A DNA stretch of 61,983 nt, counting the filler. It is 5 parts of 5 records of this genome, joined end to end, with 100 filler letters (N's around TTAATTAATTAA, not from the genome) between each part and the next. Parts side by side here need not be neighbours in the genome. Positions count along the whole stretch, not along the records: positions 1 to 24,275 come from SRR31156797_12852; 4 more parts are not named here. One strand, given 5' to 3'. Numbering within the stretch: the first letter of the stretch is position 1; every line of letters begins with the position of its first letter. The notes beneath the pieces are model-generated. The model had not been told where the DNA came from, did not search any database, and saw only the letters and a program-made list of their open reading frames with translations. Shown piece by piece: positions 6,839 to 35,499 of the stretch. The translations under genes and the position numbers were made by a program.

Positions 6839-6899
6839 AATTCTAACTTTATTTGTATGATACTCAAATAACAATAAGGATAGATGAATGTTTTGGTTT

Positions 6900-8293: not shown

Positions 8294-8413
8294 GATTCTC
8301 TAATTTAGTTTTAAAACTTATGAAACGCAGTATGCAACTAATCTTTAATAGATTTTGGCTGGTTTCATAATTAATGAATTATTATTATGTATTAGATTAC
8401 CGTAATGGCAATT

Positions 8414-9565
8414 CTATTTTAGTTCTGCCAAATTATCTACTTCTTCTTTAATAAAAAAGAATTTGTTGGAATTGTCTTTAACCTGTATGATCAATTTTTG
8501 ACCAGGATGAATTTCTTTACTTTTCAACTTATTCCATTTCATTATATCTTCAACTGTACAATGGTAGTTGATAGCAATTTTATGAAAATACTCACCTTTT
8601 TGTACAATATGTTCTATTGGAATGGTTTTGTAAGTATTTTGAGCAGCTCTGTTTCTTTCTTGGTATTTGTATAATTCAGGTTCCTTTTGCACAAAAGTAC
8701 TTGCGAAATCTTGTGGAATAAATAATCTAACAGGATCTTCATTTACAGGAATGGTTTCTTTGGTAAAAACCGGATTCAGAAAACTCAGGTCGTCGATGCT
8801 AATGCCAACAACAGTTGAAATTTGTTCAAACGAAATACTTTTTTGAATGTAAACAGTATCTAACTGGTTAAATCCAAACTTGGCAGGTTTATTTTCGATA
8901 TCGTAATTTTTAAAATAACTCATGGCATAATTTGCGGCAATAAACGCAGGAACATAACCTTTTACCTGCTCGGGTAAATAGGGGCGAAGTTCCCAATAAT
9001 TAGTTTTACCACCTGATCTTTCAATGGCTTTTTTTACCACTCCGGCGCCTCCATTATAAGCAGCGAGAGCCAATTGCCAATCGTTAAATGTTCGGTAAAG
9101 ATACTCTAGGTATTTGCATGCGGCTTCGGTTGCCAGAACCGGATCACTTCTTTCGTCAATATAGGTGCTCACTTTTAAGTCGAACATAGAGCCGGCATGA
9201 TATAAAAATTGCCATAAGCCGGTTGCACCGGATTTAGATTTAGCTCTGGGATCAAGGGCTGATTCTATAACTGCCAGATATTTAAGTTCAAGAGGTAAAT
9301 TGTATTTATCCAGGTATTCTTCAAAAAGGGGAAAATATAATTTCGATCGACTAATGATATTGGCCAGATGATCTCTTCTTTTTACGGTGTAAACATCAAT
9401 ATATGCCTGAACAGATTCGTTGTAATCCAGTTGGATGGGTGTTTGATAATTAAGCGCTTCCATTCGTTTTTCAATCATCCATTCCGGAAATTGAGGAATT
9501 GTTTTTTCCTGGCTAAAACAAACGAAAGGAAATAGAATCGCAATCAGAAATACATATAATTTCAT
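8414..9565 (-). CDS. mltD: Membrane-bound lytic murein transglycosylase D-like (SLT + LysM)
   Basis: LAVIESAL, GATGLWQF and ALAAYNGG motifs; C-terminal LysM (HIVQKGEYFHKIA...IHPGQKL). Confidence 0.85.
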   Translation of the reverse strand: MKLYVFLIAILFPFVCFSQEKTIPQFPEWMIEKRMEALNYQTPIQLDYNESVQAYIDVYTVKRRDHLANIISRSKLYFPLFEEYLDKYNLPLELKYLAVIESALDPRAKSKSGATGLWQFLYHAGSMFDLKVSTYIDERSDPVLATEAACKYLEYLYRTFNDWQLALAAYNGGAGVVKKAIERSGGKTNYWELRPYLPEQVKGYVPAFIAANYAMSYFKNYDIENKPAKFGFNQLDTVYIQKSISFEQISTVVGISIDDLSFLNPVFTKETIPVNEDPVRLFIPQDFASTFVQKEPELYKYQERNRAAQNTYKTIPIEHIVQKGEYFHKIAINYHCTVEDIMKWNKLKSKEIHPGQKLIIQVKDNSNKFFFIKEEVDNLAELK

Positions 9566-9633
9566 GCGTATGCATTTATATATTATAGACGAATGAGCTT
9601 GTATGAGAAATCATATTTCAAGCTCATTTCATA

Positions 9634-10530
9634 TTACTTTAAGTTAAAGGTCATAGTACCTATGTTTCGGCCGTCAGCAAAAACATCAGCAGTATAATCC
9701 CCCTCAGTCAGTTCTCCGGCATCAACCTGGTAATATAGGCATACATCCAGTTCATCTCCTCCATATTCAATTACTCTTTTAGCAGAATAATTAATTTCAC
9801 TGTTTTCATAGGTGAAAATATCTTCTTTGCTATGGTACAATAAAGCACCATCCGGTCGTAATATTCTTAAGTATACGAGCTTTTCTCCAACTTCGGCAGT
9901 GATATTTTTTTGTATCGTAAAACAAATCCTGATTTTTGAAACACGGGAATATTTATTTGTCGATCTTCCTTTTGAATTCATACCGCTTGCTTCAAAATTA
10001 AAGGTTTCGAGTTTTGAAGCTATTTCAACCTTATGTTCCAGATTTTCTTTTACTTCTTCTAATTTGGAATAGTTGGTTTGAATATGCGTTACTTTTTGCC
10101 GGTATTGCTGGTTTTCTTCTTGTAATGCCTTGTTGGTTTGATTTAAAGAATCAATTTGAATGACATAGTTTTTTAAAACTTTCCGCAAGGATGATAACTC
10201 TTTTTTATACTCCCTGATTTTTGAGGCGTTGGTTGCTTTTATGGTTTGAATTTCTTCGATAAGGTGCGATATTTTCTCACGATCCTGCTCCAACAATTGA
10301 TTAAGGGTGTCGCTATTGGTTTTTAAGGAGTCGTAATCCAATGCAAGGTTTTCAAATTCATAGGTAAGTAAATCCTTTTCAGCTACCATTTCATCTACTA
10401 AAACCTGCATGGCACTTTGGTTTTTATAGTACAAATATCCCAAAGTAGAAATAATAACAATGGAAATAGCAGCGATGATAATGGCGGTTTGGTGTGATTT
10501 ATGTGGTTTCTTGTTGTCGTTAGTGCTCAT
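9634..10530 (-). CDS. Membrane-anchored coiled-coil hypothetical protein
   Basis: N-terminal TM helix, long heptad-rich region, beta-rich C-terminus. Confidence 0.75.
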   Translation of the reverse strand: MSTNDNKKPHKSHQTAIIIAAISIVIISTLGYLYYKNQSAMQVLVDEMVAEKDLLTYEFENLALDYDSLKTNSDTLNQLLEQDREKISHLIEEIQTIKATNASKIREYKKELSSLRKVLKNYVIQIDSLNQTNKALQEENQQYRQKVTHIQTNYSKLEEVKENLEHKVEIASKLETFNFEASGMNSKGRSTNKYSRVSKIRICFTIQKNITAEVGEKLVYLRILRPDGALLYHSKEDIFTYENSEINYSAKRVIEYGGDELDVCLYYQVDAGELTEGDYTADVFADGRNIGTMTFNLK

Positions 10531-10692
10531 GGTAACGGTTGTGCTTTTAATATTGACGACAAATTTAGAATTTTTTAAGGCATTACATAATATATGATTG
10601 GGATATAATTCATATTATTTCCCTGATATAAAAGAAAGATTGCAGAATTGATTTAAATTTGCTCACTGTTTAACTTTGAATTTATACATTCC

Positions 10693-12501
10693 ATGCGAAA
10701 TATTGTTTTTGGACTTATTACTTTACTCATCATTGTTTATTCTTGTGCCAACCCGGGATATCCTACAGGAGGTCCAAAAGATGAAGATCCACCAATTTTA
10801 AAGAAATCCACACCAGAAATGAATGCCTTGAATTACAAGAAGGATGTGGTGGAAATTGAATTCGATGAAATTATTAAGCTTGATGATGTATTTCAGAAAT
10901 TTGTTGCATCTCCTCCCTTAAAAAAGCGACCAACTATTGAAGCCAGAGCTAATAAATTAAGAATTAAGTTTCATGAGGAGGAAGTGCTACAGGATAACAC
11001 CACTTACACGCTTGATTTTGCAGATGCAGTGCAGGATAATAACGAAGGAAATCCATTAGAGTCATTTGTGTTTTCTTTCTCTACCGGTGAAATTGTAGAT
11101 TCATTTGCCATTATGGGGAATGTTTGGGATGCTTTTGACCTGTCTCCAATTGAGGGAACCTTAGTGATGGCACATATAAATTTAAATGACACTGCCTTTA
11201 CTCACGATATTCCGGTACGATTAGGAAAAACGGATGCAGACGGTCATTTTGCAATCCGTAATCTGGCTCCCGGACAGTATAAAGTTTATGCCATCGAAGA
11301 TGGGAATCGTAATTATATGTTCGATCAGCCCGGAGAATATATTGCCTGGTATGATTCTATCGTTGTTCCTTCAATGGAATATGTTGACATTCCGGATACA
11401 TTAGAAACAGATTCTGTCGTTTTTCATAAAGAGTTGGTCTATCAGCCACACGATTTAAAATTATTTCAGTTTAAGGAAAAGAGCATTCAACAATATATGT
11501 TGGGTAATGAGCGCAAAGATTCTAACACACTGGCATTCTTTTTTAATTTACCACTCGAAAATTTCTCTATAGAACCCGTATTGCCAGAATATACCAACAA
11601 AGATTGGGCTGTTCTGGAGCCTTCTGTTGAGAATGATACCATGTTTGTTTGGATTACAGACAGTACTTTGTATAATAGAGATACGCTGAACATTTCTTAT
11701 TCATTTTTGGGGTTGGATACTTTGAATAATCCTTTACAGATAAAGGATACATTGAAGATGTATTATTTTAGAATGCCGGAGAAAACCACACGTCGAGATA
11801 AAAAGAAAGGGAAAGAAAAAGTAAAAACTTTGAATATGGCTAAAAAGTCAACGAAAGTAGATTTGTTTAAAGATTTTGCTTTTATAATGCCTACTCCGGT
11901 TAAAGAGATGGATATAGAATCATTTACGCTATACGAAAGAGTAGATACACTTTTAGAGGAAAGAGAATTTACATTGTTACAGGACTCTTTGTTTAAAAGA
12001 AGATACACTTTACATACCATAAGTAAATGGACACCGGGAGCCAGTTATTTATTGTCGGTTGATTCAGCTGCCATTGAAGATGTTTATGGTTTGAAAAATG
12101 ATTCTATTGGTGCTATGTTTTCTGTAAAAGGCATCGATTCTTATGGAACCCTACTCATAAATATGTTGAAAGGATATGATAATTGGTTAGTGCAATTGCT
12201 TGATAACAGCGATAGAGTAGTTCAGCAGAAATATGTTCCAAAAAATGGGAAGTTTGCATTCCAGTATTTAAAACCGGGTTCATACCAATTAAAACTGGTA
12301 TTGGATAATAACAAAAATGGAAAGTGGGATACAGGTAAGTATGATGAAAAAAGGCAACCTGAGAATGTATATTATTATGGTGATAAAGTTGATGTAAGAG
12401 CTAATTGGGATGTTTCGGTTGAATGGAATGTAGATGATTTTGACCTGTATAAATATGTGGAGGAAAACAGGAAGTCGGTCAGAAGACAAGATGAACTATA
12501 G
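10693..12501 (+). CDS. Ig-like (Big_5) domain lipoprotein
   Basis: Lipobox YSC followed by ANPGYPTGGPKDEDPP; NTTYTLDF...DNNEGNP; C-terminal DNNKNGKWDTG...QPE. Confidence 0.85.
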   Translation: MRNIVFGLITLLIIVYSCANPGYPTGGPKDEDPPILKKSTPEMNALNYKKDVVEIEFDEIIKLDDVFQKFVASPPLKKRPTIEARANKLRIKFHEEEVLQDNTTYTLDFADAVQDNNEGNPLESFVFSFSTGEIVDSFAIMGNVWDAFDLSPIEGTLVMAHINLNDTAFTHDIPVRLGKTDADGHFAIRNLAPGQYKVYAIEDGNRNYMFDQPGEYIAWYDSIVVPSMEYVDIPDTLETDSVVFHKELVYQPHDLKLFQFKEKSIQQYMLGNERKDSNTLAFFFNLPLENFSIEPVLPEYTNKDWAVLEPSVENDTMFVWITDSTLYNRDTLNISYSFLGLDTLNNPLQIKDTLKMYYFRMPEKTTRRDKKKGKEKVKTLNMAKKSTKVDLFKDFAFIMPTPVKEMDIESFTLYERVDTLLEEREFTLLQDSLFKRRYTLHTISKWTPGASYLLSVDSAAIEDVYGLKNDSIGAMFSVKGIDSYGTLLINMLKGYDNWLVQLLDNSDRVVQQKYVPKNGKFAFQYLKPGSYQLKLVLDNNKNGKWDTGKYDEKRQPENVYYYGDKVDVRANWDVSVEWNVDDFDLYKYVEENRKSVRRQDEL

Positions 12502-12525
12502 TTTTAATCATTAAAAAATAAAGTC

Positions 12526-12837
12526 ATGTCAGTATTAGTAAATTTTGCCATGTTTCCAACGGATGCAGGTGTTAGCAAAAGTGAACCTGTTAGTAAAGTA
12601 ATTGATTTTATTAAAAATATCGGAGTGAGTTATACTTTTGGTGCTATGGGTACAACTATTGAAACCAATACTATGCCGGAAGCACTGGAAATTATCAATA
12701 AGGCCTATCAAATTCTCGAAAAAGATCATGAGCGTATTTATACTACCGTAACGATTGATGCCCGTAAAGGTGAGATGGGAAGAATGACCAATAAAATTAA
12801 TGCTGTTGAAAGTAAAATTGGTAAGGTTAATAAATAA
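12526..12837 (+). CDS. MTH1187/YkoF-like thiamine-binding protein
   Basis: FAMFP...S.S..V...GAMGTTIE...RIYTTVTIDAR pattern. Confidence 0.8.
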   Translation: MSVLVNFAMFPTDAGVSKSEPVSKVIDFIKNIGVSYTFGAMGTTIETNTMPEALEIINKAYQILEKDHERIYTTVTIDARKGEMGRMTNKINAVESKIGKVNK

Positions 12838-12841
12838 GCCA

Positions 12842-13681
12842 ATGTGTAAGTATTGTGCTCGCCTAAAGGTGCTTCTTGTGCTATTTGTAGCTGGCTTAGT
12901 TAGTGTTAATGAGGTGAATGCACAATGTAATGTTCAGAATTATACTTTTCAGGGAGGCGAGGTTGTAACATACCATGCCTATTATAATTGGCATTTTATT
13001 TGGCTTAATGCCGGGATTGTGCACTTTTCAGTAGAGGACAAAAACTACAATAATACAGATTGTTGGTTTTTATCGGCTTATGGAAGAACTTATAGTGGAT
13101 ACGACAGATTTATGATGGTGCGCGACACCTTTGAAGTATATGTAGATAAGAACAGATTTGCGCCTTTATATTATAGACGTGCGACTAATGAAGGAAGCAC
13201 GCACTCCAAACATAATTACTGGTTTAATTACGAAACCAATACGGTAAAGGCCAGGTTTCAAAGGGAAGATGAGACAGAATTAAAGGATAGTGCACTGATA
13301 CTACAGGATTGTACTTCCGATTTACTGACTATGGTTTACAAGGCTCGCAACATAGATTATTCTCAATACAAGGAGGATGATAAAATCCCCATTAGAATGA
13401 TTGTAGATAGTAAAATCTACGATTTATACATTCGCTATTTAGGGAAAGAAACCATAAAGAACAGAGATGGACGCCAGTTTAGATGTTTAAAGTTTTCTCC
13501 ATTATTAGTGGCAGGTACTATTTTTAAATCAGGGGAAGATATGACGGTGTGGGTGACAGATGATGATGCCCGTATTCCAATTATTGTGGAGGCGAAAGTA
13601 CTGGTAGGTTCAGTAAAGGCTGTATTTGTTGATGCTCAAGGTTTAAAAAATCCTATTGAAGCAGAGGTATTTGAAGATTAA
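12842..13681 (+). CDS. DUF3108-family protein
   Basis: Signal peptide; YNWHFIWLNAG, VRDTF and VWVTDDDARIPI...VGSVK motifs; ATG 12842. Confidence 0.8.
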   Translation: MCKYCARLKVLLVLFVAGLVSVNEVNAQCNVQNYTFQGGEVVTYHAYYNWHFIWLNAGIVHFSVEDKNYNNTDCWFLSAYGRTYSGYDRFMMVRDTFEVYVDKNRFAPLYYRRATNEGSTHSKHNYWFNYETNTVKARFQREDETELKDSALILQDCTSDLLTMVYKARNIDYSQYKEDDKIPIRMIVDSKIYDLYIRYLGKETIKNRDGRQFRCLKFSPLLVAGTIFKSGEDMTVWVTDDDARIPIIVEAKVLVGSVKAVFVDAQGLKNPIEAEVFED

Positions 13682-13763
13682 ATATGTTTGAGTTCAAAAT
13701 CTGGTTTGCTTAAAGAACCTCAGATGTGTAACTTTATAAGAAAGTGTTTGAGTGTTTTGCAAA

Positions 13764-14546
13764 ATGGGGAAATTAGAAAACTATATAAATGAACTACTGT
13801 TAGAATTTCAATGCAATATAAAAGAAGTGCGTAAACACGGTGATGAAGAATCGATTCACGCATTAAGACTTTCTTTAAAGCGCATTTTTACCCTTATTAA
13901 ATTTATCGACTTCATAGAAATTCAATTTTCTTCGGAACCATCTGGTGTTCGCAAAACTTTAAAACAACTATTTAAACAATTAGGAGAGATACGGGATTTA
14001 CAGTTAGCCTTAAAAACGCAAAAGCTTATTTTAGGAGGTAAATCATTAAAAAAGATGGAGCGTATAATTAAGCCTATTCAGAAATTTCATAAAGCACAAT
14101 TGTTGCATATTCTCAATAATTTTAATGCTCAAGAAGTGAGTGATCGGTTAGGAGAGCTACTTAGGATTTTAACTTGTTTTAAAAAGAAATACCTGATTGA
14201 TCAAGTTCGTTTGAAATTAGAAGAGGATATACAAAGTGTTGGTTTTTGTTTGGCACAGAGTAAAGTAGATTATCATTTAATCCGGAAAAAAATAAAGCAG
14301 CAGTACTATTTATTGTTGTGGATAAAAACAATATCCAAAGAAAAAGTCAAGCAAAGCGCTTTTGAGTTGAGAAGGCAATTGGCAGAGCTATTGGGAACGT
14401 GGAATGATGTTGAAATGATGCAGCTCGTTTGTCGTCAGGTTGATTATAGCTTTTCTGATAAGGAAAAACTAAAATTGAATTTGTATCAAAGTAGTATTGA
14501 AAAGCAGTTGAGTCATGCGGAAATAAATCAGGCTATCCGAATTTAA
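13764..14546 (+). CDS. CHAD domain protein (polyphosphate-binding family)
   Basis: IHALRLSLKR, LGEIRDLQ, HLIRKKIK and LGTWND motifs. Confidence 0.85.
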   Translation: MGKLENYINELLLEFQCNIKEVRKHGDEESIHALRLSLKRIFTLIKFIDFIEIQFSSEPSGVRKTLKQLFKQLGEIRDLQLALKTQKLILGGKSLKKMERIIKPIQKFHKAQLLHILNNFNAQEVSDRLGELLRILTCFKKKYLIDQVRLKLEEDIQSVGFCLAQSKVDYHLIRKKIKQQYYLLLWIKTISKEKVKQSAFELRRQLAELLGTWNDVEMMQLVCRQVDYSFSDKEKLKLNLYQSSIEKQLSHAEINQAIRI

Positions 14547-14559
14547 CAAATAGCCTGAT
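14527..14559. terminator. Likely bidirectional terminator between convergent genes
   Basis: 10-bp inverted repeat ATCAGGCTAT/ATAGCCTGAT. Confidence 0.55.
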
Positions 14560-14580
14560 ATATTATTTTCTACTTCAAAC

Positions 14581-16536
14581 TTAGTTTAAAGCCATATTTT
14601 CTTGTGGTTTTGAAACTACAATTTTCTGGTTTAATTTTTCAATGATGGTTTTGTATAACGATTTAAGCTCGTTATATGCCGAAGCTGGATACGTTGGCTT
14701 TTTAAGCTGGTAAACAGCTGATATCACAATTTTATTTTCTTCTTTTTGCACATTAAAAGCGATAGCAGTATTATCTGTGTTTTTGTTAATTGGTTCAGGT
14801 AGTTGTTCAACCTGATATCCTTCTGGAATTGTAATTTCTGCCAGGTATGTCTTAGTTACCGGGTTAATCAAATCTATATTTAACTCTCTTTCTTCCTGCT
14901 TAAAAGGGTTGGACTGAATGGCCATGTGCATAAAAGGTTTAAAAATCATAAGTCCGTCAATCTGATCGATTTTACTGTTAAAGGAAAAATCGTAGTTAAA
15001 CATTCTTGTATTTTCTTCCAGCTCAGCAATATTGATATCGCCAATCAGGTTTAAACCTCGTTTATGAAGATTTTCCTTAAACTTTTTATCATCTCGCTCA
15101 TAGGATTTCTTCTCCTTTATGGATTCGTAGCCCTTGGTTTGAACAATAATTTTCCCGGTTAACTCATTTTTTTCAGGATCAAGTTTGTAGCTAAACCGGG
15201 TAGCTGTTACAGAAGGAACATTGTTTTTAATCGTAATCCAGTTTTCACTGCCTTGTTTCACCAGGTATCCATTGCCATTATAGTATGATTCTGGCATCAT
15301 ATTATTGGGGCAGTATGCATCGGTTGCATCCAGTAAAACTTCTTTGTCTTTTAAGCGAGCCAGAATAATCACATTATTAAATAAATCACTGAAAGGAAAA
15401 TCGCTATTTATCTTACCATGATCTCTTGTACTTATAATTACCGGATCAGCATTTATGCCCACGCTGCGCAAATATCCTAAGGCCATTAAGTTAATGTTGG
15501 CTGTATTTCCGGTTTTTTCGGTGGTAAATTCTTTTATGGATTTAGCAGCCCATTTATTGATATAACCATTGTGTTTGTAGTTGTATTTCATATGATTTAA
15601 AATGGCTTCCACTTTTTCGTCTTCAGATGCATTCAGTAAAGCCACGAATTCTTTCTTTCCAATCTTTTCAGCCTTTTTAATATACTTTCCAAATTCTGCA
15701 CTTTCTAAAAAATCTTTGGATAACTCGGGCCAGGTAGTCATGATTTTTTGTTTTCTTCCATCCGGGTAATTAATTTCAGACAATTGGAAATCAATTTTTT
15801 TAATGTAATCTTCTCTTGATGAAATAAAGCTTTCGTCTTTAAAAGAGCCTACGTTTTTCAAACCAAAAGTATAGGTTAAGTCTTGAAATTCAAGCCCCAT
15901 AAAACTTTGAGCTATTCCTTTATCAGTATCCTTACTAAAATGATCAAATTGGGTAAAGCCTTGAGCTCTGAACATGTATGTGTAAAAAGGAATCATGCTT
16001 GTTTTGTATTCACTATAAATGGTAGGTATGTTCGACTGAAATTCCCAGTCTGGCAGATGAAACATAAATGGAGAAAGTATAGTGTACTTCACATCAAGAA
16101 TGCAGCCTTCTTTAATATTAGGCAGGGCAAATTTTTTTCGATACCAGTATTTATTAATGGGTTCTTCAAATATTTGCTCGTCTTTAAGAACTGTTTTTTC
16201 CATTGTGCCATTATTGACAAAAAAAGTGGTTGCTTTAATATCTCGAACCCTTTCTCTGTCAGAGTTACCTATGTATAATTCAATTGAAAAATTGGCTTGG
16301 TCAAATGCAGCTTCTTTAAAAATTTTAACGCGTTTATGTCGTTCAAATTTCAAAATAAATCCACCATCCTCTTGAATAAAACGAGCAGATCCTTTATCGA
16401 ATATGGTAACCGCTGGTGCATCAGGTTCAAAATCGCATTTTGTCATTTTTAAATAATCAATGCTCTCTTCATTTTGAGACCATAGTTGAATTGAAAAAAA
16501 CAGTGCGCAGGATAGGTATAGAATAGTTCTCCTCAT
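14581..16536 (-). CDS. DUF3857 + transglutaminase-like protein (catalytic Cys apparently absent)
   Basis: Signal peptide; PDAPAV...RVKI, FALPNIKEGCIL and WEFQSNIP motifs; TGNTANINL at the usual GxC position; ISTRDHG, LLDAT. Confidence 0.85.
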   Translation of the reverse strand: MRRTILYLSCALFFSIQLWSQNEESIDYLKMTKCDFEPDAPAVTIFDKGSARFIQEDGGFILKFERHKRVKIFKEAAFDQANFSIELYIGNSDRERVRDIKATTFFVNNGTMEKTVLKDEQIFEEPINKYWYRKKFALPNIKEGCILDVKYTILSPFMFHLPDWEFQSNIPTIYSEYKTSMIPFYTYMFRAQGFTQFDHFSKDTDKGIAQSFMGLEFQDLTYTFGLKNVGSFKDESFISSREDYIKKIDFQLSEINYPDGRKQKIMTTWPELSKDFLESAEFGKYIKKAEKIGKKEFVALLNASEDEKVEAILNHMKYNYKHNGYINKWAAKSIKEFTTEKTGNTANINLMALGYLRSVGINADPVIISTRDHGKINSDFPFSDLFNNVIILARLKDKEVLLDATDAYCPNNMMPESYYNGNGYLVKQGSENWITIKNNVPSVTATRFSYKLDPEKNELTGKIIVQTKGYESIKEKKSYERDDKKFKENLHKRGLNLIGDINIAELEENTRMFNYDFSFNSKIDQIDGLMIFKPFMHMAIQSNPFKQEERELNIDLINPVTKTYLAEITIPEGYQVEQLPEPINKNTDNTAIAFNVQKEENKIVISAVYQLKKPTYPASAYNELKSLYKTIIEKLNQKIVVSKPQENMALN

Positions 16537-16546
16537 TTTAATTTTG

Positions 16547-18379
16547 TTAAAAGGTTATGATTGCTTTTTGATGATCCTTTAAGCAGGATTCAGTTATAAA
16601 CTTGTTGAATTCAGGGTATTCATCTTTTAAATATCTTCCTTGTTTAATTTGAAAAGTTCTAATCACCATCAATTGGTTTTCCTTTATCTCAAAGTGTTTT
16701 TTATACAGACCATAAGGTGTTTTATTCGATATATTTTCTAATCCTATTAGTTTTTGAATCGGCTTATTAAAATGGTAGGCGACAGTATCGCATCGGTTGA
16801 ATGGGCTTGAAATGAAAACATCTGTTTGCCTTGTGGAATCAGGTGTTAATTGGTATGAGATAGGTCGGAAAGGACTTAAAAGAATTTTCGAACCTAGTTT
16901 TTCGAAAAGTTGATCTACCTTACCTTTTAATTGCAGATGGATAAAACACGAATCGCGATGAGGCCGGTTAATTTTAAATTCTTCCACATCTGTTTTATAA
17001 TTAAAACCAATGTAGTCAATCGATTCTTTTTTATCACTTTCTGAAAGATGGTTATTAAAGGCCTTAAGATTGTCGAAAGAGGCTCCCCGCAAATTTGCAT
17101 TACATTCGAAACTAACCATATCTGAAATATGAATTTGAGTGTAATAAGTATCCATACTTTCATTTAAGGATAATGCTGGAGTTTGTACCAGTTTACTGTT
17201 GTCCTGAATGTTTAATAAAGCTTTTCGGTTTTGAGTAAAAGTACCCAGATAGTTAAACGGAGAGGTTTTGTCTGTGCATTCCAGCCATATAGTATCCTTT
17301 TGCAAAGGAACACAAAGTATGATGTGGTTAAATTGGTTGGAAGGAAAATCGGAGTTAATTCTGTTGGGTTTATCACCAGCATAAATGGTTGTGTAAATTG
17401 ATTCGATTCCTGCTTCTTTAAGTAAAGCCATGGTGTAATTACTTAGGGCTTTGCAATCTCCATGTTTGTTATTGCACACATAGGTAGCCGGATGAGGAAC
17501 TAAGCCTCCAATATCTTCGGAAACATAAATATAACGTGTGTTATCCTGCATGTAATGATACAGCGTCTTAATTTTTTCGGTTTTATTTGGCAGGTGATCT
17601 GTGAGTTGATGTACCTTATTTTTTTCCTGCTCGGTTAAAACGTCCAAGCCTTTTGCTAAGTCGCAATGCCAGTTCCCAAAATCCTTCCAGGTGTTGGCGC
17701 TTCCCGGAATACCGTAGGTAAACTGATGCGGAATAACAACCACATGCGGAAGCTGGTCTTTCAAATGAGGAGCGTAAGATTCATATTCGGGATACTCGAA
17801 ATGATTGACATGCCAGTGTAGTGTTTTGCTTTCTTCGTTTTTAACAACGTAGGCTGTATCGGTTTTAAAACTATAAATATTGAGTTCTTCGTTTAAGGGA
17901 ACTTCAACGCTCAGAGAGGCCGATTTTACCGGAACATCTTTCCAAAGAGCCGGATTCCAGTCAGCCAAAGAAATATAGTTTTTAATAGTATAGGAATAGC
18001 TGTACTTAATGGTATATGGAAAGCGATTGTGAATTAAATCAAATGTCATTAAGCGCTGATCTGTATAAAACTCACTTTCGGAATAAGGCGTTCGGATGAT
18101 AATGTCTTTCTTTTTTAGTTTTCGGATTTCATTACCCCAAAAGTCGTGGATGGAGGCTTTTATATTTTTTACTGAATATGTATCTGAATAGGGGATAGCG
18201 ATTTCTGCATATTGTGCGCCTTTAGCATTGTTTATTTGAAGTTCTACCTCAATGTTTTCAACTACTTTTTTACCATCGTAGATGATTTGGGTAGTGTAGT
18301 TTTTTAGCTCAGCATTGTGCTTCGAAGCAGTTAGGATGGAGCAAAACAGTGTGAGTAAGGTCAGGAGTGTGATCCGCAT
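16547..18379 (-). CDS. DUF3857 + transglutaminase-like protein (Cys-His intact)
   Basis: YMQDNTRY, HGDCKALSNY, FNHIIL and WLECT motifs. Confidence 0.87.
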   Translation of the reverse strand: MRITLLTLLTLFCSILTASKHNAELKNYTTQIIYDGKKVVENIEVELQINNAKGAQYAEIAIPYSDTYSVKNIKASIHDFWGNEIRKLKKKDIIIRTPYSESEFYTDQRLMTFDLIHNRFPYTIKYSYSYTIKNYISLADWNPALWKDVPVKSASLSVEVPLNEELNIYSFKTDTAYVVKNEESKTLHWHVNHFEYPEYESYAPHLKDQLPHVVVIPHQFTYGIPGSANTWKDFGNWHCDLAKGLDVLTEQEKNKVHQLTDHLPNKTEKIKTLYHYMQDNTRYIYVSEDIGGLVPHPATYVCNNKHGDCKALSNYTMALLKEAGIESIYTTIYAGDKPNRINSDFPSNQFNHIILCVPLQKDTIWLECTDKTSPFNYLGTFTQNRKALLNIQDNSKLVQTPALSLNESMDTYYTQIHISDMVSFECNANLRGASFDNLKAFNNHLSESDKKESIDYIGFNYKTDVEEFKINRPHRDSCFIHLQLKGKVDQLFEKLGSKILLSPFRPISYQLTPDSTRQTDVFISSPFNRCDTVAYHFNKPIQKLIGLENISNKTPYGLYKKHFEIKENQLMVIRTFQIKQGRYLKDEYPEFNKFITESCLKDHQKAIITF

Positions 18380-18454
18380 TTATTTTGTTTTGCACGAATA
18401 TAAATATTTTGTGTGAATGGAGAAAGTTGAAGTAGCAGGAACGCAGATATCTTC

Positions 18455-18716
18455 ATTTAAAAAGTGCATGTAGACAGATTTATCCAGAAAAGTATCTTAT
18501 TAAAATGAATTGATGTATTTCTCCAAAGAAAAGTCTCATCTAAAATTCAGATTCTACTTTTCTTAAAAAAATGGCTTATCTAAAATTCATATGGCGTATT
18601 TCTGAATAGAAATGTGGCATCTAAAACTAAAATGCGACTTTTCTCAAAAAAAATAAGTTATCTGAATTAAAGATTCTCCATATTTTGATTGAAACACACA
18701 ATATGAATTTAAAAAG
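18455..18716. repeat. Degenerate ~40-41-bp tandem array built from two alternating short palindromes
   Basis: ATCT(A/G)AA-type unit starts at 18538, 18578, 18619 and 18660, with weaker copies at 18455, 18498 and 18701. Confidence 0.7.
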
Positions 18717-18750
18717 CAAAAAGAGACCATCTCAATTGAGACAGCCTCTT
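18711..18750 (-). terminator. Intrinsic terminator with no annotated gene directly upstream
   Basis: Minus strand AAGAGGCTGTCTC-AATT-GAGATGGTCTCTT-TTTGCTTTTT; 13-bp stem with 3 G-U pairs that form only on the minus strand. Confidence 0.85.
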
Positions 18751-18865
18751 GAATCTCGTATTCACTTAAACACAAAATATAAAAGTGCTCAAACTAAATT
18801 AAATTGATATGTATTAAGCAAATGGTTTGGCGAGATTATGTTTTAAAATATTCATTTGTTATGGT
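18711..18865 (-). ncRNA. Putative sigma54-dependent small RNA (~150 nt) carrying a 13-codon sORF
   Basis: Bounded by a sigma54 -24/-12 promoter and a strand-matched terminator; contains no long ORF. Confidence 0.55.
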
Positions 18866-18875
18866 TGAAATGATA

Positions 18876-18891
18876 TGCAAATAACTTGCCA
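18876..18891 (-). promoter_or_regulatory. Sigma54 (RpoN) -24/-12 promoter
   Basis: Minus strand TGGCAA-GTTAT-TTGCA versus consensus TGGCAC-N5-TTGCW; GG-N10-GC spacing is exact. Confidence 0.75.
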
Positions 18892-18934
18892 TAAACTACA
18901 ATACTGTATAATAAATAAATGTTTATTATTTAAC

Positions 18935-18960
18935 TTATTGTTACTTGTTATTGTTACTTG
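18935..18960. repeat. Perfect 13-bp tandem duplication
   Basis: TTATTGTTACTTG x2. Confidence 0.8.
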
Positions 18961-18999
18961 TGAAAGTATGTGTTTTAGTTGTTATTAATGAAAAATAAG

Positions 19000-19019
19000 A
19001 ATGACATATCTACGTCATT
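19000..19019. promoter_or_regulatory. Candidate enhancer (bEBP) site
   Basis: AATGAC-N8-GTCATT palindrome about 135-155 bp upstream of the predicted sigma54 start site. Confidence 0.4.
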
Positions 19020-19272
19020 TATGCGGCATTTTGTTTAGTGTTTTGTAAATGAGCGTGAAGTGAGGATGTTTTTTTCATAGTTTGTTAAGATTTTGTATGG
19101 GTGTTTTATAGATTTAGAGTGCTGAAATAGATCTTATAAAATTAAATAGCAAGCAAAGTAGTAGTGAATATATTTTTGTAATATGTTTTTTAGGAAAGAG
19201 TATTCTTGCTTTAGTTGCTATTTATTCTATTATTGGGGAGTTTTGTTTTGTCAATAGGGAAAATATAAACAT

Positions 19273-19343
19273 GAAAAAGTCTGTTACTTTGCATCATGAT
19301 TCGCCACCCCAGCAACTCATAACACAAATAAACAGACTTTTTC
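19273..19343 (-). terminator. 71-nt hairpin downstream of the nif operon (terminator or structured 3' element)
   Basis: Perfect 13-bp outer IR GAAAAAGTCTGTT/AACAGACTTTTTC; the inner arms pair on the minus strand via G-U. Confidence 0.55.
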
Positions 19344-19456
19344 GAGTAGTAGGAATGGCCATGAACCATCCCCTGCGTAACCTATATCCTTGTGCCAAAG
19401 GTTAAAAGGTTAGCCAATTTATTGGAATAATTATAAGACAATAGTATAATTTCTTT

Positions 19457-19834
19457 CTATAGTGTATATTCTGGTTTAAAAGCGCTATCTACCCAGTTTT
19501 TTATTGTTCTTAATGATGTAATCATTAATTCTATATCCTGAGTAGCAGAATCTGCTGAAACTACACAAGAGCATTTGGTTTGTAATTCATCTGCCTGTGC
19601 TTTAATTTCTGCTGGAATTAACTCATTTTTTTCAAGGGTAGCGATAATATTTTCCAAGCCATGCCCGTATGGTTCCTTACCATTCTTATAAAGCATAGAG
19701 CTCATTAAGTATTCAGCTGCAAGCGTAATTACATTTATAGTAATGTTTTCTCCAAACTTATTGGATTTAGAGAAGCTTATTGCATTGTGAAAGTATTCTA
19801 AACCTTCGTCGTAAATTTTTCTGCTGTTATTCAT
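19457..19834 (-). CDS. HEPN-like domain protein, last gene of the nif operon
   Basis: Helical 125-aa protein; LAAEYLMSSML..G.EPYGHGLENII resembles the HEPN AxEKxLKA..G..P..HDL pattern; 19 bp downstream of nifV. Confidence 0.6.
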   Translation of the reverse strand: MNNSRKIYDEGLEYFHNAISFSKSNKFGENITINVITLAAEYLMSSMLYKNGKEPYGHGLENIIATLEKNELIPAEIKAQADELQTKCSCVVSADSATQDIELMITSLRTIKNWVDSAFKPEYTL

Positions 19835-19853
19835 AGTTGTTTTTTTTCGGGAT

Positions 19854-20963
19854 TTATAGATCGAGAATTAATTCTCGTAATTCATTATTGTCAACACTGT
19901 TTTTTTTGCTTGCTGCCAGTTGCTTTACTTTGGGTAAAATTTCTTTTCCTTGCTCGGTACTCAGTTGAATACCCATTTGAGCCAAGGTATCTAACACTAC
20001 TGCTACACCAGAGTGTTTTCCTATCACAAACTGAGATTGTTTGCCCACTTCTTCCGGATGAAAGGCATGGTAACTCATAGGATTATTCAGTATTGATCTG
20101 CAATGAATACCGGATTCGTGACTCGCAATTAATTCGCCTGTAATTGGTTTTGTTTGGCTTACTTTTCGTTTTGATACATTTTCTACAAACTGGCAGACTG
20201 TATTAATGTTTTTCAAATCAATTTCCAGGTCTTTATTTAATGAGAATTTAGCTGCAGCAGCTACTTCTTCAAGTGGAGCATTTCCTGCTCTTTCACCTAG
20301 TCCGTTTATGGTTACGTCAATGCTATTGCATCCGGCTTGTAATGCGGCAATGCTGTTGGCAGTTGCCATGCCTAAATCGTTGTGCGCATGAAATTCTAAA
20401 TCCATATCAGGAAATAGCAGACGATAACTCGAAATCATTTCATGAACAGAGAAAGGATTCATAATACCAACGGTATCTGCAAAGCGAACACGTTTTACGC
20501 CCAGACTGGTGGCTTTATTTATATATTCGGCTAAAAAATTTGGATTAGCTCTGGAAGCATCTTGTGCTCCAATGCCAACAAATTCAAAATGATTATTGGC
20601 TAAGCCAATCATAGTGGCCATTTGATCCATCACCCATTGGGGATCTTTACCAATAGCTGCTAACTGAAGATCACTAACCGGAAATGAAATGCTGATTCGT
20701 TTAGCGCCTGTTCTTTTGGCAGCCATTATATCTGATACGGTTGCTCTGGCCCAACATAAACTATCAAAAGCAAAACCTTGATTGATGATAGTTCTAATGT
20801 CTTTTTCCTCCTCAATAGAGATAGCAGGAGTTCCAACCTCAGCTTCCTGAACACCTAATGCTTCAAGCATTTGAGCAATTTGTATTTTTTCATCTAATGA
20901 AAAAACAACACCGGCAGCTTGTTCGCCGTCTCTTAAAGTAGTGTCTATCAGATATTGTTTCAT
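19854..20963 (-). CDS. nifV: Homocitrate synthase
   Basis: IDTTLRDGEQAAG, FADTVG, EFHAHNDLGMATAN, NGLGERAGNA and HESGIH motifs; nif context. Confidence 0.93.
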   Translation of the reverse strand: MKQYLIDTTLRDGEQAAGVVFSLDEKIQIAQMLEALGVQEAEVGTPAISIEEEKDIRTIINQGFAFDSLCWARATVSDIMAAKRTGAKRISISFPVSDLQLAAIGKDPQWVMDQMATMIGLANNHFEFVGIGAQDASRANPNFLAEYINKATSLGVKRVRFADTVGIMNPFSVHEMISSYRLLFPDMDLEFHAHNDLGMATANSIAALQAGCNSIDVTINGLGERAGNAPLEEVAAAAKFSLNKDLEIDLKNINTVCQFVENVSKRKVSQTKPITGELIASHESGIHCRSILNNPMSYHAFHPEEVGKQSQFVIGKHSGVAVVLDTLAQMGIQLSTEQGKEILPKVKQLAASKKNSVDNNELRELILDL

Positions 20964-21004
20964 GGTGTATTCAGTTATCAGTTAACAAAAATTGGATAAC
21001 AGCA

Positions 21005-21055
21005 ATCAGTAAACAGTTTCATGACATAAGTGAGCATTATTTACTGTTTACTGAT
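21005..21055. repeat. Intergenic 13-bp inverted repeat within heptamer-like CAGT/ACTG repeats
   Basis: ATCAGTAAACAGT (21005-21017) and ACTGTTTACTGAT (21043-21055). Confidence 0.65.
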
Positions 21056-21073
21056 CACTATTGATTGTCTAAC

Positions 21074-21379
21074 TTAATCCGAGATTAAATACTCTTCTAC
21101 TGCTTCTCCTTCTTCAAGGGCATCAAGTATTTCATCAATTTTTTCTTCTGTAATTTCACCGTACCATAAGTTGTTTGGGTGGATTACCATAATTGGTCCC
21201 TGGCTACATACATTTAAACAAGCAGTACTTGATACAGCAGCATCAATACCTCTGTCGTTACACTCTTCAGTGATATAAGGGATGAAATCTGTAGCTCCGT
21301 TTTTGTTACAGAATCCTTGTGCATCTCCTGCAACACGGTAAGAATTACATACCAAAATGTGATATTCAGGCTTTTTCAT
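21074..21379 (-). CDS. Thioredoxin-like [2Fe-2S] ferredoxin (nif-associated)
   Basis: HILVCNS...GFC...STACLNVCSQGP...WYG. Confidence 0.9.
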   Translation of the reverse strand: MKKPEYHILVCNSYRVAGDAQGFCNKNGATDFIPYITEECNDRGIDAAVSSTACLNVCSQGPIMVIHPNNLWYGEITEEKIDEILDALEEGEAVEEYLISD

Positions 21380-21466
21380 TTCTTGAAAATTATAGGTTAA
21401 TAAAACTGTTTATTTGTCTTTCTTTCTGGTTATATATAAGTATTGGTTTGGTTATTTTTGAATGGA

Positions 21467-22759
21467 TCAACCACATCCGGTTCCTGTTCCTGAACAACCT
21501 GCTCCACACTTAAAGCTTTCTGCTTTTGTAACCGTTCTTAGTTCGGTGCCTTTGTATACTGAATCCATTCCCTGATCAATAAGTCCCGACATTTCGATTA
21601 CTTCCAAGCCTGACTTACCAAGAATTTTAGATGGTTTTGGACCAATACCTCCAACCAAAATAGCTTTACAGTCGCTTAGTATTTCTCCTAATTCTTCCCA
21701 ACGTTTGTCGCCGCTTCCTTTTGGAGGAGTAACACGTTGATTTACTAATTTGTATCCATTAGGAGTTTCCTTGAAAATATAAAGTCTATCAGCTTCTCCT
21801 AAGTGCTGGTTAACCAGGATTCCTTCGTTACTGGCAACTGCAACATATGGTCTTGAGTCAGCATCTCCTTTATCAATTCTTACTTTGGCTGCTTCTGTTA
21901 ATAGCTCCATGGCTTCAGTACTGTCTTTACCTAATAATCCGGCAGCATCAGCTCTACAGCGACTACAGTGTGTCATTGGAGGAAGGTGCTCTGCAATACC
22001 TTTTCTAATTTCTTTCATGTAAGAAGAAGATGGCTCTTCTAAATCAGAGAACGGAGTATCTTCAACAGGAATCAAAGGAATGGTATTCATTAAGTCAACA
22101 CCCATTTCTGCTAAGCCTTCTGCTAATTCTGTCAGGTGATCATCGTTAACACCCGGGATTACTATAGCATTTGCTTTTACAGTGATTCCTGCAGCCTTTA
22201 ATTTTTTAATAGCTTCTAATTGTTTTTCCAATAAAAGCTCAGCTCCTGCCAATCCAAAATATCCTTTCTTTTCAAAACGAACCCAACGGTACACTTTTTC
22301 AAGAATTTTAGGATCCAATGCGTTGATGGTAATAGTTACATGACTTACTTCCAATTCAGCCAATTCATCTACATAAGGAGCGATGTTTAATCCGTTTGAA
22401 GAAACACAAAGGATCATATCATCAAAGTTGGAACGAACCTGACGTAGAGTTTCCATTGTCTCATCAGGATTTGCAAAAGGATCTCCAGGTCCTGCGATTC
22501 CTACAACTGATAATTGAGGCATTTTTTCGCGCAGTGATTTTAAGTATACAATAGACTGCTCTGGAGATAAAATATTTGAAGTAACACCAGGACGACTTTC
22601 GTTAACGCAGTCGAACTTACGGTTACAATAATTACAACTAATATTACATTTAGGGGCTACTGGTAAATGCACTCTGGCATATTGTCCTTTAGCTTCTTTA
22701 TTGAAACAGGGGTGTTTTTTAAAATCGATCATAACTTTGATTTTTTGATGATTTGACAT
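21467..22759 (-). CDS. nifB: Radical SAM FeMo-cofactor protein NifB with C-terminal NifX-like domain
   Basis: HPCF, HLPVAPKCNISCNYCNRKFDCVNESRPG, AGPGDP, CSRCRADA and VNQHLGEA motifs; alternative start at 22732. Confidence 0.96.
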   Translation of the reverse strand: MSNHQKIKVMIDFKKHPCFNKEAKGQYARVHLPVAPKCNISCNYCNRKFDCVNESRPGVTSNILSPEQSIVYLKSLREKMPQLSVVGIAGPGDPFANPDETMETLRQVRSNFDDMILCVSSNGLNIAPYVDELAELEVSHVTITINALDPKILEKVYRWVRFEKKGYFGLAGAELLLEKQLEAIKKLKAAGITVKANAIVIPGVNDDHLTELAEGLAEMGVDLMNTIPLIPVEDTPFSDLEEPSSSYMKEIRKGIAEHLPPMTHCSRCRADAAGLLGKDSTEAMELLTEAAKVRIDKGDADSRPYVAVASNEGILVNQHLGEADRLYIFKETPNGYKLVNQRVTPPKGSGDKRWEELGEILSDCKAILVGGIGPKPSKILGKSGLEVIEMSGLIDQGMDSVYKGTELRTVTKAESFKCGAGCSGTGTGCG

Positions 22760-22811
22760 CAGATAATAGACTATTGCCTGTTATCTCTTATTCCAATTAA
22801 CTCGTTTTGTT

Positions 22812-24224
22812 TTACATGTACTTCCAGCCTACCTCGGATTTTTCTTGTTTGTAATCAATCATGGCATTGCCAATCTTGTCAAACATTTCCTGGGCACCTT
22901 TATAGGCTACATGTTTTAATCTAGAACCGCCCATTCTGTCATGTATCGGAAATCCTGCTCTTACAAGAGGGATACCTAACTCACGAGCTATATAGTACCC
23001 TTTACTGTTACCTACTAACAGGTCGGGCTTCATATCAATACAGTATTCATTGATTTTTTCGTAATCCAAATCATCTAACACAATGGTTGAATGACCATGA
23101 ACCGGAGCACTTTTTTCAATTTCCGGTTTTAGTATTCCGCTACTACCTCCAGAGGCGGCAAGAATTACTTCAACACCTATTTCATCTAAAAAGGCTGTCA
23201 TGGCAATTACAAAATCCTCTTCACCGTATACCACTGCTTTTTTACCGAATACATATTTGTGTCCGTCTGCGTAAGCATCAATTAAACGACCTCTTTCCAT
23301 GCTATATTTGGTAGGCACTTCATTACCGCTTAATTCTTTCAGGATGTCAAATAGGGCATCGGTTTGTGTAATTCCGAAAGGAACATTAATGGCGTAATTT
23401 TTAACGCCAAATTCCTTTTGTAAATATTCAGCTCCTGTTAAAGCTAAATTTTTATTTTTTACTCTTCCGGCCAGATTTCCTTTGTTTAGTACAGGGCCAA
23501 ATTCGATACTGGCTTTGGCTCCTCCCATTAATTTTAAATCCTCTACAGAAGTTCCGCCATCCGGTATTCTGTGATAAGTATCCCAAACCGGGTTATCTAG
23601 TGTTTCAGAATAATCAGGAACCATGATGTAATCAATTCCAAAATCTTCTAAAATATCTTTTAGCATTCTAAGATCTTCGGTAGAGATGAAACCAGGAAAA
23701 ATATTTACTTTTTCGTTTGGTTCAACCTTAGTGGCAAAGGTCTTAGTAATAGCAGCTACTGTTTCGTGGAATCCATCCATATGAGATCCCTGATAACTTG
23801 GTGTAGATGAGTAAACAAATTCAGGAATTGTTTCGTCATCAGCATGAGCTGCTTTGTAATTTCTTAAAGCTTGTCCGATATCATCACCAATTGTTTCGGC
23901 TAAGCAGGTTGTACAAACACCCACTACTTCTGGTTTGTACTGAGCAATTACATTTTGAATTGCCATGCTGAGATTGCCTTCTCCGCCAAAAATAGTTGAC
24001 TCCTCACTAAAATTGGAAGAGGCAATATCAACAGGCTCTTTGTAGTGACTGATCAAATATCTTCTGATATAAGTGGCACACCCTTGTCCTCCGTGAATTA
24101 CAGGTACACAACCTTTAATTCCTTTATATGCTATACTTCCGCCAAGTGGAGAACACACCTTACATGCATTCCTGGTGGCTACGAAGTTTTTTCTTTCTTT
24201 TAATACTGGTATTTTGTCGGCCAT
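22812..24224 (-). CDS. nifN: Nitrogenase FeMo-cofactor scaffold NifN
   Basis: RNACKVCSPLG, HGGQGCATYIRRYLISHYKEPVDIASSNFSE and GFPIHDR motifs; directly upstream of nifB. Confidence 0.88.
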   Translation of the reverse strand: MADKIPVLKERKNFVATRNACKVCSPLGGSIAYKGIKGCVPVIHGGQGCATYIRRYLISHYKEPVDIASSNFSEESTIFGGEGNLSMAIQNVIAQYKPEVVGVCTTCLAETIGDDIGQALRNYKAAHADDETIPEFVYSSTPSYQGSHMDGFHETVAAITKTFATKVEPNEKVNIFPGFISTEDLRMLKDILEDFGIDYIMVPDYSETLDNPVWDTYHRIPDGGTSVEDLKLMGGAKASIEFGPVLNKGNLAGRVKNKNLALTGAEYLQKEFGVKNYAINVPFGITQTDALFDILKELSGNEVPTKYSMERGRLIDAYADGHKYVFGKKAVVYGEEDFVIAMTAFLDEIGVEVILAASGGSSGILKPEIEKSAPVHGHSTIVLDDLDYEKINEYCIDMKPDLLVGNSKGYYIARELGIPLVRAGFPIHDRMGGSRLKHVAYKGAQEMFDKIGNAMIDYKQEKSEVGWKYM

Positions 24225-24275
24225 ATTATTATAGAATTAAGATTAAAGTATTAAGTATAAAGATGATTTACAGCT

Positions 24276-24375
24276 NNNNNNNNNNNNNNNNNNNNNNNNN
24301 NNNNNNNNNNNNNNNNNNNTTAATTAATTAANNNNNNNNNNNNNNNNNNNNNNNNNNNNNNNNNNNNNNNNNNNN
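24276..24375. other. Artificial contig spacer
   Basis: N44-TTAATTAATTAA-N44; base composition changes across it. Confidence 0.97.
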
Positions 24376-24376
24376 G

Positions 24377-25021
24377 TCCCAGATCAATCCCCATTTTCTG
24401 TACAATACCCTGGATTCCATCAAATGGCTGGCGGTCTTTCAGAATGTTGAAAATATCAGCGATATGGTTACGGCCCTTATTAATCTTCTGAAATACAACA
24501 TCTCCAAGAAATCGAAACTTGTTTCCCTGGGGGAAGAGATAAATAGCATAAAGGATTACATCGAGATTCAGAAATTCCGTTTCGGGGATGACTTCGATGT
24601 CCTTTATGAGATCGGAGAAGAGACCCGGGATTGTTCCATACTGAAATTCATTCTCCAGCCACTGGTGGAGAATTCCATATTCCATGGTTTTGACAACATC
24701 GACTATCAGGGGGTCATCAGGATACAGAGCTCTCTGAAGGGACAGACGCTGGTGATCAAGGTTATCGATAACGGAAAGGGCCTGGTTGGGAATCAGGATT
24801 ATCTGCAGCAGAGAAGCACCTACGATCATAAAAAAATGCACAACAGCATCGGCGTCAGGAACGTTATGGACCGGATCAAACTCTATTTTGGCGAGAAGGC
24901 CGATTTCTCTCTCGAAAACGGTCTGGAGAGCGGGGTCGTCGTTACCCTCTCCCTGCCATTGCTGCACAACGCCTCCAGGTTTCCAGACGAGAACGAATCG
25001 ATGAGGACTTATATTGAGTAG
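24377..25021 (+). CDS. YesM/LytS-type sensor histidine kinase (5' truncated)
   Basis: Frame from 24377 reads SQINPHFLYNTLDSI; also LQPLVENSIFHG, DNGKG and IGVRNV. Confidence 0.9.
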   Translation, partial: SQINPHFLYNTLDSIKWLAVFQNVENISDMVTALINLLKYNISKKSKLVSLGEEINSIKDYIEIQKFRFGDDFDVLYEIGEETRDCSILKFILQPLVENSIFHGFDNIDYQGVIRIQSSLKGQTLVIKVIDNGKGLVGNQDYLQQRSTYDHKKMHNSIGVRNVMDRIKLYFGEKADFSLENGLESGVVVTLSLPLLHNASRFPDENESMRTYIE

Positions 25022-35399: not shown

Positions 35400-35499
35400 N
35401 NNNNNNNNNNNNNNNNNNNNNNNNNNNNNNNNNNNNNNNNNNNTTAATTAATTAANNNNNNNNNNNNNNNNNNNNNNNNNNNNNNNNNNNNNNNNNNNN
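35400..35499. other. Artificial contig spacer
   Basis: N-run + TTAATTAATTAA + N-run, 100 nt. Confidence 0.97.

Follow-up and report, generated by a model that had tools for sequence, protein, structure and literature searches.

A candidate sigma-54-type small RNA unit between a nif gene cluster and a cell-surface gene pair in Bacteroidota

Introduction

Does the spacer between a nitrogen fixation (nif) gene cluster and its neighbouring cell-surface genes hold a small RNA gene of its own? The window analysed here is a stretch of 61,983 bases made up of five contigs. The spacer lies in the first of them (1-24275), between a nif cluster and a DUF3857/DUF3858 cell-surface gene pair. The original prediction placed in it, on the minus strand between 18891 and 18711, a sigma-54-dependent transcription unit for a small RNA (sRNA), and linked that RNA to nitrogen control. 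How Bacteroidota regulate nitrogen fixation has hardly been studied. On regulation, a nif survey of the phylum describes glnB-like genes and occasional nifA only (PMC4356463).

Our answer is a tentative one, held at slightly less than even weight: the unit may be an undescribed small RNA gene, probably sigma-54-dependent, stand-alone and non-coding, with a product of ~150 nt. That the feature forms a transcription unit of its own is probable from its sequence; promoter use, the transcript ends and a regulatory function we infer from the same source.

Results

A promoter-like element and a strong terminator on one strand

The element at 18891-18876 on the minus strand, TGGCAAGTTATTTGCA (TGGCAA-GTTAT-TTGCA), is of the sigma-54 -24/-12 type and is the near-consensus promoter named in the original prediction. 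It departs once from TGGCAC-N5-TTGCW, and its GG and GC are 10 nt apart, as a sigma-54 promoter requires; the consensus is quoted as TGGCACN5-7TTGCT (PMC12316311). Because the GC lies at 18878-18877, the usual sigma-54 spacing would place the +1 near 18865, 12 bases past the C of the -12 GC at 18877. In the 61,983 bases, searched on both strands, TGGCAAGTTATTTGCA is the only match to TGGCANNNNNNTTGCW (TGGCA-N6-TTGCW).

About 115 nt past the predicted +1, on the same strand, the region 18750-18711 has the two parts of an intrinsic terminator: a G+C-containing stem-loop and, directly after it in the transcript, a U-tract. The hairpin (18750-18721) reads AAGAGGCTGTCTC-AATT-GAGATGGTCTCTT and forms a 13-bp stem with five G-C pairs and an AAUU loop; TTTGCTTTTT comes next and extends to 18711, giving the U-tract UUUGCUUUUU in the RNA. 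Folded alone, the hairpin reaches -17.0 kcal/mol. As originally noted, three of its pairs are specific to one strand: G-U on the minus strand, they would become C-A mismatches on the other. These G-U pairs, together with the fold z-scores of the two strands (-3.42 versus -1.22), pick the minus strand as the transcribed one. Of the 12 distinct terminator-like sites in the window that have 8 pairs or more, two reach 13 pairs, and this hairpin is one of them.

A lone TGGCA-N6-TTGCW match ~115 nt 5' of one of the top two terminators, on the same strand, supports a single unit. The expected number of chance conjunctions, with the motif 80-250 nt 5' of a strong terminator on the same strand, is ~0.005 per window, a figure obtained by post hoc arithmetic as 0.32 x (12 x 170 / 123,966).

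A predicted structured RNA with little coding capacity

The predicted 155-nt RNA folds with -32.4 kcal/mol (z = -3.42), and 1 of 200 shuffled sequences folds equally well; the z-score of the opposite strand is -1.22. In the predicted fold the body (18865-18751, minus strand) starts with a 28-nt unpaired, A-rich 5' end and continues into a long imperfect stem closed by AAUCUCG/CGAGAUU. The body was originally described as U-rich and weakly structured. Its 115 nt include 44 U (38%) and 42 A (37%), and its U-rich runs (RNA positions 61-71 and 82-92) are predicted to be buried in the long stem; what remains of that description is the unpaired first 28 nt, which are A-rich.

As originally noted, no long open reading frame (ORF) lies between promoter and terminator. 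The only complete ATG ORF there has 13 codons (MNILKHNLAKPFA plus stop; 18855-18814, minus strand). A TTG frame of 43 codons (18775-18644) begins in the body and reads through the terminator. Ten stop-to-stop frames of the spacer gave no Pfam match at cut-off and none below E = 0.1, the sole listing having E = 0.12.

No family of Rfam 15 reached its gathering score anywhere in the window. Permissive scans of 18300-19500 and 18690-18900 gave hairpin-driven sub-threshold hits alone; the best of them over the unit were Yfr19, with 25.5 bits against 70, and the Bacteroides family BTnc231, with 18.2 bits against a cut-off of 80.4.

The upstream spacer and a possible need for a separate start

Past the last nif-cluster gene lies a long imperfect hairpin (19343-19273) with 32-nt arms that are 78% complementary. 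U-runs are found on both of its strands, and the hairpin probably closes the nif operon as a two-way terminator. The conservation of this nif-side hairpin suggests that a transcript ending at 18711 would need its own start downstream. The Bacteroidota primary-sigma -7 box TAnnTTTG has no perfect match on the minus strand in 18380-19460. The spacer's only perfect -7 box, TATTTTTG, is on the plus strand (19171-19178) and aims at the nif-side hairpin; a short antisense or divergent transcript from it is possible.

In the supplementary table of a sigma-54 survey, rpoN is present in 27 of 27 Bacteroidia genomes, each of which has on average 9.26 activator genes (PMC12316311), so sigma-54 use is plausible in the class in general.

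Conservation in a close relative

A search of genome contigs with the DUF3857 protein as query returned two loci, L001 and L002. L001 is part of the complete chromosome of an uncultured Saccharicrinis metagenome-assembled genome (MAG; family Marinilabiliaceae, class Bacteroidia) and is 97.6% identical to the window over 6549-24245 (17.7 kb); the homology stops at 24245. For S. fermentans, nifHDKENB and the reduction of acetylene are described (PMC4356463). The Saccharicrinis MAG, the one close relative available (1 of 1), keeps the whole unit, promoter and terminator included.

Changes relative to the MAG are distributed unevenly along the spacer. The -24/-12 core (18876-18891) has 0 in 16 positions and the promoter surroundings (18866-18934, 69 nt) 6 in 69. 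The predicted RNA (18711-18865) has 5 in 155, three of them among the 115 nt of the body. Farther upstream, the variable region 18962-19257 has 34 changes in 296 positions and the nif-side hairpin region 19258-19456 has 1 in 199; on the other side, the repeat array region 18480-18710 has 10 in 230 plus two indels. Among fourfold-degenerate sites, 129 of 1779 are changed overall and 49 of 353 in the flanking NifV-like and DUF3857 genes. The RNA has changed more slowly than the upstream 296 nt (Fisher p = 0.0024), and it is also slower than the fourfold sites of these two genes (p = 0.00014).

With the two copies aligned, RNAalifold predicted 44 pairs, none of them broken and two altered on one side with the pair kept. 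The change 18773 G>A turns a G-U pair of the long stem into A-U, and 18726 T>C turns a G-U pair of the terminator into G-C, which strengthens that stem. The remaining three changes (18856, 18826 and 18712) are at unpaired positions, 18712 T>G being in the U-tract. This pair-keeping pattern is weak support for the structure, transitions being common.

Evidence against a stand-alone unit, and the possibility of a chance motif

A number of observations weigh against the small RNA gene, and they start with the promoter element. By itself the -24/-12 motif is not significant: chance matches of TGGCANNNNNNTTGCW average 0.32 per window and at least one occurred in 30 of 100 dinucleotide shuffles. A looser sigma-54 pattern matched twice in the window, with 1.12 matches expected. 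The intact core has a chance probability of 0.14-0.30. The conservation comes from a single, very close relative. Compared with the overall fourfold rate, the slow change of the RNA is marginal (Fisher p = 0.068; binomial 0.028), and other spacers in the collinear block are as conserved, for example with 0 changes in 110 positions and 1 in 162. No compensatory double change is found among the 44 predicted pairs of the two copies.

In the sequence covered, neither rpoN nor an activator gene or activator site could be shown. The NifA-type motif TGT-N10-ACA does not occur in 18380-19460. An activator site should lie in the upstream 296 nt (18962-19257), yet no other stretch of the spacer is so poorly conserved. 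Some 45-70 nt 5' of the -24 element, 13 nt are duplicated in tandem (CAAGTAACAATAA in minus-strand letters; 18935-18961, 2.1 copies, 100% match); the MAG has a single copy, so the spacing to elements farther upstream is not fixed. No sigma-54 activator domain is among the Pfam hits listed for 58 window ORFs, one of the scans giving the best five families per protein. A second copy of the unit was not found with nhmmer and short-word blastn in the window and L001-L004 (~121 kb), which returned only the unit itself and the MAG copy. The unit is absent from L002 and from the Cytophagales plasmid loci, relatives too distant to weigh, and in a collection of 72,556 plasmid records, blastn with 18700-18960 as query gave one 29-nt chance match. 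The search for RNA targets, described below, adds two more points of this kind.

These observations bear directly on the alternative that survives best, which we nonetheless regard as unlikely: the sigma-54 match may be a chance or unused sequence, and the terminator may serve a spacer transcript from an unrecognised promoter, such as an extracytoplasmic function (ECF) or degenerate primary-sigma promoter, or back up the stop of nif read-through. Besides the insignificance of the motif alone and the lack of an activator gene or site, what is described of the phylum fits this view. Bacteroidota are said in one study to have many alternative sigma factors with unknown motifs (PMC7366714). The sigma-54 survey treats sigma-54 control of nitrogenase as mainly a Pseudomonadota trait and places the centre of the predicted Bacteroidota sigma-54 regulon on chaperones and transporters (PMC12316311). 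What a chance motif explains poorly is its conjunction with the terminator, at ~0.005 per window. In addition, the core is intact in the MAG while the surrounding 69 nt hold the six changes given above, and a back-up for nif read-through would follow a conserved hairpin that the nif operon already has 520 nt upstream.

A possible leader of the DUF3857/DUF3858 operon

The next alternative, somewhat less probable again, takes the unit as the 5' leader of the DUF3857/DUF3858 operon. The sigma-54 promoter would then drive the operon, the hairpin would be a regulated attenuator, and the short RNA would either arise as a by-product when transcription ends early or be derived from the leader. The unit and the operon are on the same strand with no intervening gene, and from the terminator to the ATG at 18379 the minus strand has no perfect TAnnTTTG. 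The distance between these two is 331 nt and includes a repeat array, which counts against a leader.

Comparison with other loci gives a mixed picture. L002, a Lentimicrobiaceae MAG with a homologue of 32% identity, has the sigma-54-like sequence TGGCTGGCTATTTGCT (9959-9974) 27 nt before the ATG. Two TTTCT-N4-(A/C)GAAA palindromes are found at 9807-9843 of L002, ~120-150 nt before TGGCTGGCTATTTGCT, a geometry typical of an activator site and a sigma-54 promoter. However, TGGCTGGCTATTTGCT matches with a mismatch, and the one-mismatch pattern occurs 8 times in L002 against 7.06 expected. Within 600 nt upstream, a GG/GC sigma-54-like motif is present in one of six other Bacteroidota loci (L002-L007), and L003 and L006 carry TAnnTTTG boxes 44 and 57 nt before the start instead. 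A general sigma-54 control of DUF3857 operons was considered and rejected on this count of one in six.

The folding of the RNA also bears on the leader. Before the 3' arm of the terminator exists, its 5' arm can pair with RNA positions 74-85 (-18.5 kcal/mol) in an antiterminator-like manner, and in the long stem the 5' strand overlaps the 13-codon ORF. Compared with this alternative, the terminator fold gains 14 kcal/mol in stability (-32.4 versus -18.5), and the MNILKHNLAKPFA peptide is without the single-codon runs typical of classic attenuators. In the MAG, 18773 G>A breaks the only G-C pair of the alternative central hairpin (RNA 93/108) and improves the main fold. As this change harms the alternative and favours the main fold, the examination of the leader ended with the leader ranked second; the closing ranking, by probability, runs from the small RNA through the chance or unused motif and the leader to a micro-peptide mRNA.

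A last alternative, a tiny mRNA whose product is the peptide MNILKHNLAKPFA of 13 residues, is very improbable: the ATG lies 10 nt past the predicted start with an A-rich stretch in front, and the sole substitution in the ORF is synonymous (18826, AAA>AAG), but a single substitution carries no weight, ~60 nt of structured RNA extend beyond the stop codon, the MAG alters the base directly before the ATG (18856 A>G), and 13 residues are too short for family and homology searches.

The proposed nitrogen link and target pairing

If the small RNA gene is real, its partners might be sought among the neighbouring mRNAs, and the original prediction had its U-rich tracts pair with A-rich translation initiation regions. 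For 16 genes of the collinear block, among them NifK and NifE of L001, the region from -50 to +20 was paired with sliding 25-nt pieces of the RNA body. The seven nif-cluster start regions paired no better than with shuffled RNAs, 50-80 of 100 shuffles being at least as good. The strongest pairing, -15.1 kcal/mol, was with the start region of the DUF3857 gene, for which 2 of 100 shuffles were as good; it has an 11-nt perfect core between 18780-18770 and 18414-18404. Both of the points announced above arise here. The best score over all 16 genes was equalled by 72 of 100 shuffles, so that no target emerged, and the 11-nt core is broken at two positions in the MAG, uncompensated. No conserved seed complementary to target mRNAs was found in the 16 start regions. 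Folding of full-length duplexes with the nif and DUF3857 mRNAs produced long, loop-ridden duplexes, which we judged uninformative.

The proposed pairing of U-rich tracts thus found no target beyond shuffles in the 16 start regions. The proposed nitrogen response fared no better, since the spacer has no TGT-N10-ACA site, no activator domain was among those listed, and the nif start regions paired no better than shuffles. The nitrogen connection is one of position alone and is otherwise unsupported.

Gene neighbourhood

Upstream of the unit, all on the minus strand, are a NifN/K-like gene (22812-24224), nifB (21467-22759; above the TIGR01290 cut-off), a 2Fe-2S ferredoxin gene and a NifV-like homocitrate synthase gene (19854-20963), whose score of 439.7 bits is under the cut-off of 462.9. 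The HEPN-like ORF that comes next (19457-19834, minus strand; 125 residues) has a weak HEPN match (E 2.5e-4, under the Pfam cut-off) and no match among NCBIfam models; it is the last nif-cluster gene in the window and in the Saccharicrinis MAG alike. These genes justify speaking of a nif cluster beside the unit, with the qualification that it is a fragment: the contig end at 24275 cuts the upstream side of the NifN/K-like gene. The MAG has more genes there, as three further ORFs in L001 (1-4168) fit nifD (3' part), nifK and nifE in size and order.

Downstream, also on the minus strand, are the gene for a DUF3857 protein with a transglutaminase core (16547-18379; Pfam PF12969 at 2.5e-22, PF01841) and, second in the pair, its DUF3858 partner (14581-16536). 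If the unit is a leader, the DUF3857 gene would be a candidate for its target in cis. Part of the 331-nt stretch between terminator and DUF3857 gene (18380-18710; fold z = -2.38) is filled by a minus-strand array of 4-5 hairpin-forming units of 40-41 nt (18480-18693; spacing 40/41/41; family D1). Its unit junctions read TTTCT-N4-AGAAA. The array period is close to four helical turns, so the sites, whether protein sites or RNA hairpins, would share one face of the DNA. The window has 11 TTTCT-N4-AGAAA palindromes against 7.99 expected, 3 of the 11 clustering locally, and L002 has 5 against 2.37 expected, 2 of the 5 just 5' of the DUF3857 homologue. The local clusters could mark a shared regulator site, but the totals are not above chance.

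Linkers of 100 nt, each made up of TTAATTAATTAA with 44 N on either side, separate the five contigs at 24276-24375, 35400-35499, 43574-43673 and 52559-52658. The G+C contents of the contigs, from the first to the fifth, are 0.352, 0.503, 0.282, 0.532 and 0.324. This spread suggests that the assembly is a draft or a binned one, possibly of mixed origin. Genes flanking the junctions cover their Pfam models partially (DctM at 43735, MlaE at 52135 and DapB at 52607). In the second contig, a 185-residue ORF (24464-25021) resembles an anti-sigma-F or histidine-kinase ATPase (NCBIfam E 2.5e-6, far under the cut-off) and overlaps an opposite-strand ORF of 215 residues without a family match. In the fourth, the N6_Mtase domain of a type I restriction-modification methylase is split between two overlapping ORFs at 45430-47744 (model positions 3-140 and 237-309), suggesting a frameshift or sequencing error.

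Discussion

The original proposal of a sigma-54 small RNA unit is supported by the one-strand arrangement from promoter to terminator, by the lack of a long ORF and of an Rfam family, by the neighbouring nif genes and by the retention of the unit in a relative; its nitrogen link and the precedent of GibS are unsupported. On the small RNA reading, the -24/-12 element at 18891-18876 would recruit sigma-54 RNA polymerase, and a putative enhancer-binding ATPase would help it to start transcription near 18865. The strong intrinsic terminator, which ends at 18711, would halt transcription. The predicted product has an accessible A-rich 5' end of 28 nt, a long imperfect stem and a terminator hairpin. 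Base-pairing RNAs that act in trans are usually built in this way. Nitrogen is possible as the inducing signal only by the location of the unit.

Several known systems resemble the unit in part. In Proteobacteria, Qrr, GlmY/GlmZ and CrcZ are sigma-54-dependent sRNAs that combine a -24/-12 promoter with a short terminated RNA, and their genes usually adjoin an activator gene. The unit differs in that no activator domain is among the Pfam hits listed for its 24-kb contig. NfiS of Pseudomonas stutzeri A1501 (with NfiR) shares with the predicted unit a stand-alone, non-coding nature, a sigma-54 site and a diazotroph as host. NfiS expression is described as abolished without rpoN, and NfiS as pairing with nifK mRNA in an Hfq-dependent manner (PMC6606865). 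The unit differs from it in phylum, has no sequence or Rfam relation to it, and shows no pairing above shuffles with the seven nif-cluster start regions covered.

By analogy, NfiS appears to be a better functional parallel than GibS, which the original prediction had cited as a similarly sized Bacteroides sRNA reported to have a putative sigma-54 promoter. GibS and other intergenic sRNAs of Bacteroides thetaiotaomicron do share features with the unit: they belong to the same phylum, are intergenic, and have their own start and an intrinsic terminator. The unit has no Rfam match to them at gathering score. In the main texts of the GibS study (PMC7366714) and of the transcriptome atlas (PMC10994844), the terms sigma54, 'sigma 54' and RpoN do not occur, so the precedent finds no mention there. 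Attenuators and leader RNAs are similar in that a strong terminator, preceded by a promoter and a short ORF, lies 5' of a same-strand operon, with a possible alternative pairing of the terminator's 5' arm. The unit differs from them in that its alternative fold is weak and not conserved, the leader would be ~490 nt long, and the peptide lacks a regulatory codon run.

Full-text literature searches, judged by title and the start of the abstract, returned no paper on a sigma-54-driven small RNA in Bacteroidota. A far-reaching and quite improbable extension of the small RNA reading would make the unit the first sigma-54 riboregulator of Bacteroidota, at the nif-island edge of a marine diazotroph. 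It would be switched on through a nitrogen- or energy-sensing enhancer-binding protein, and its open, A-rich 5' end would act on distant mRNAs, possibly those of nifH and nifD; it would be an independently arisen counterpart of NfiS in an anaerobe lineage lacking Hfq-type control.

At present the unit is one plausible small RNA candidate among many in any genome. Should it be a leader of the DUF3857 operon, it would represent an unusual control of a widespread, uncharacterised envelope gene pair. If it is expressed and rpoN-dependent as a small RNA, it would give the phylum its first defined sigma-54 promoter for an RNA gene and would make post-transcriptional control accessible to study in a marine diazotroph.

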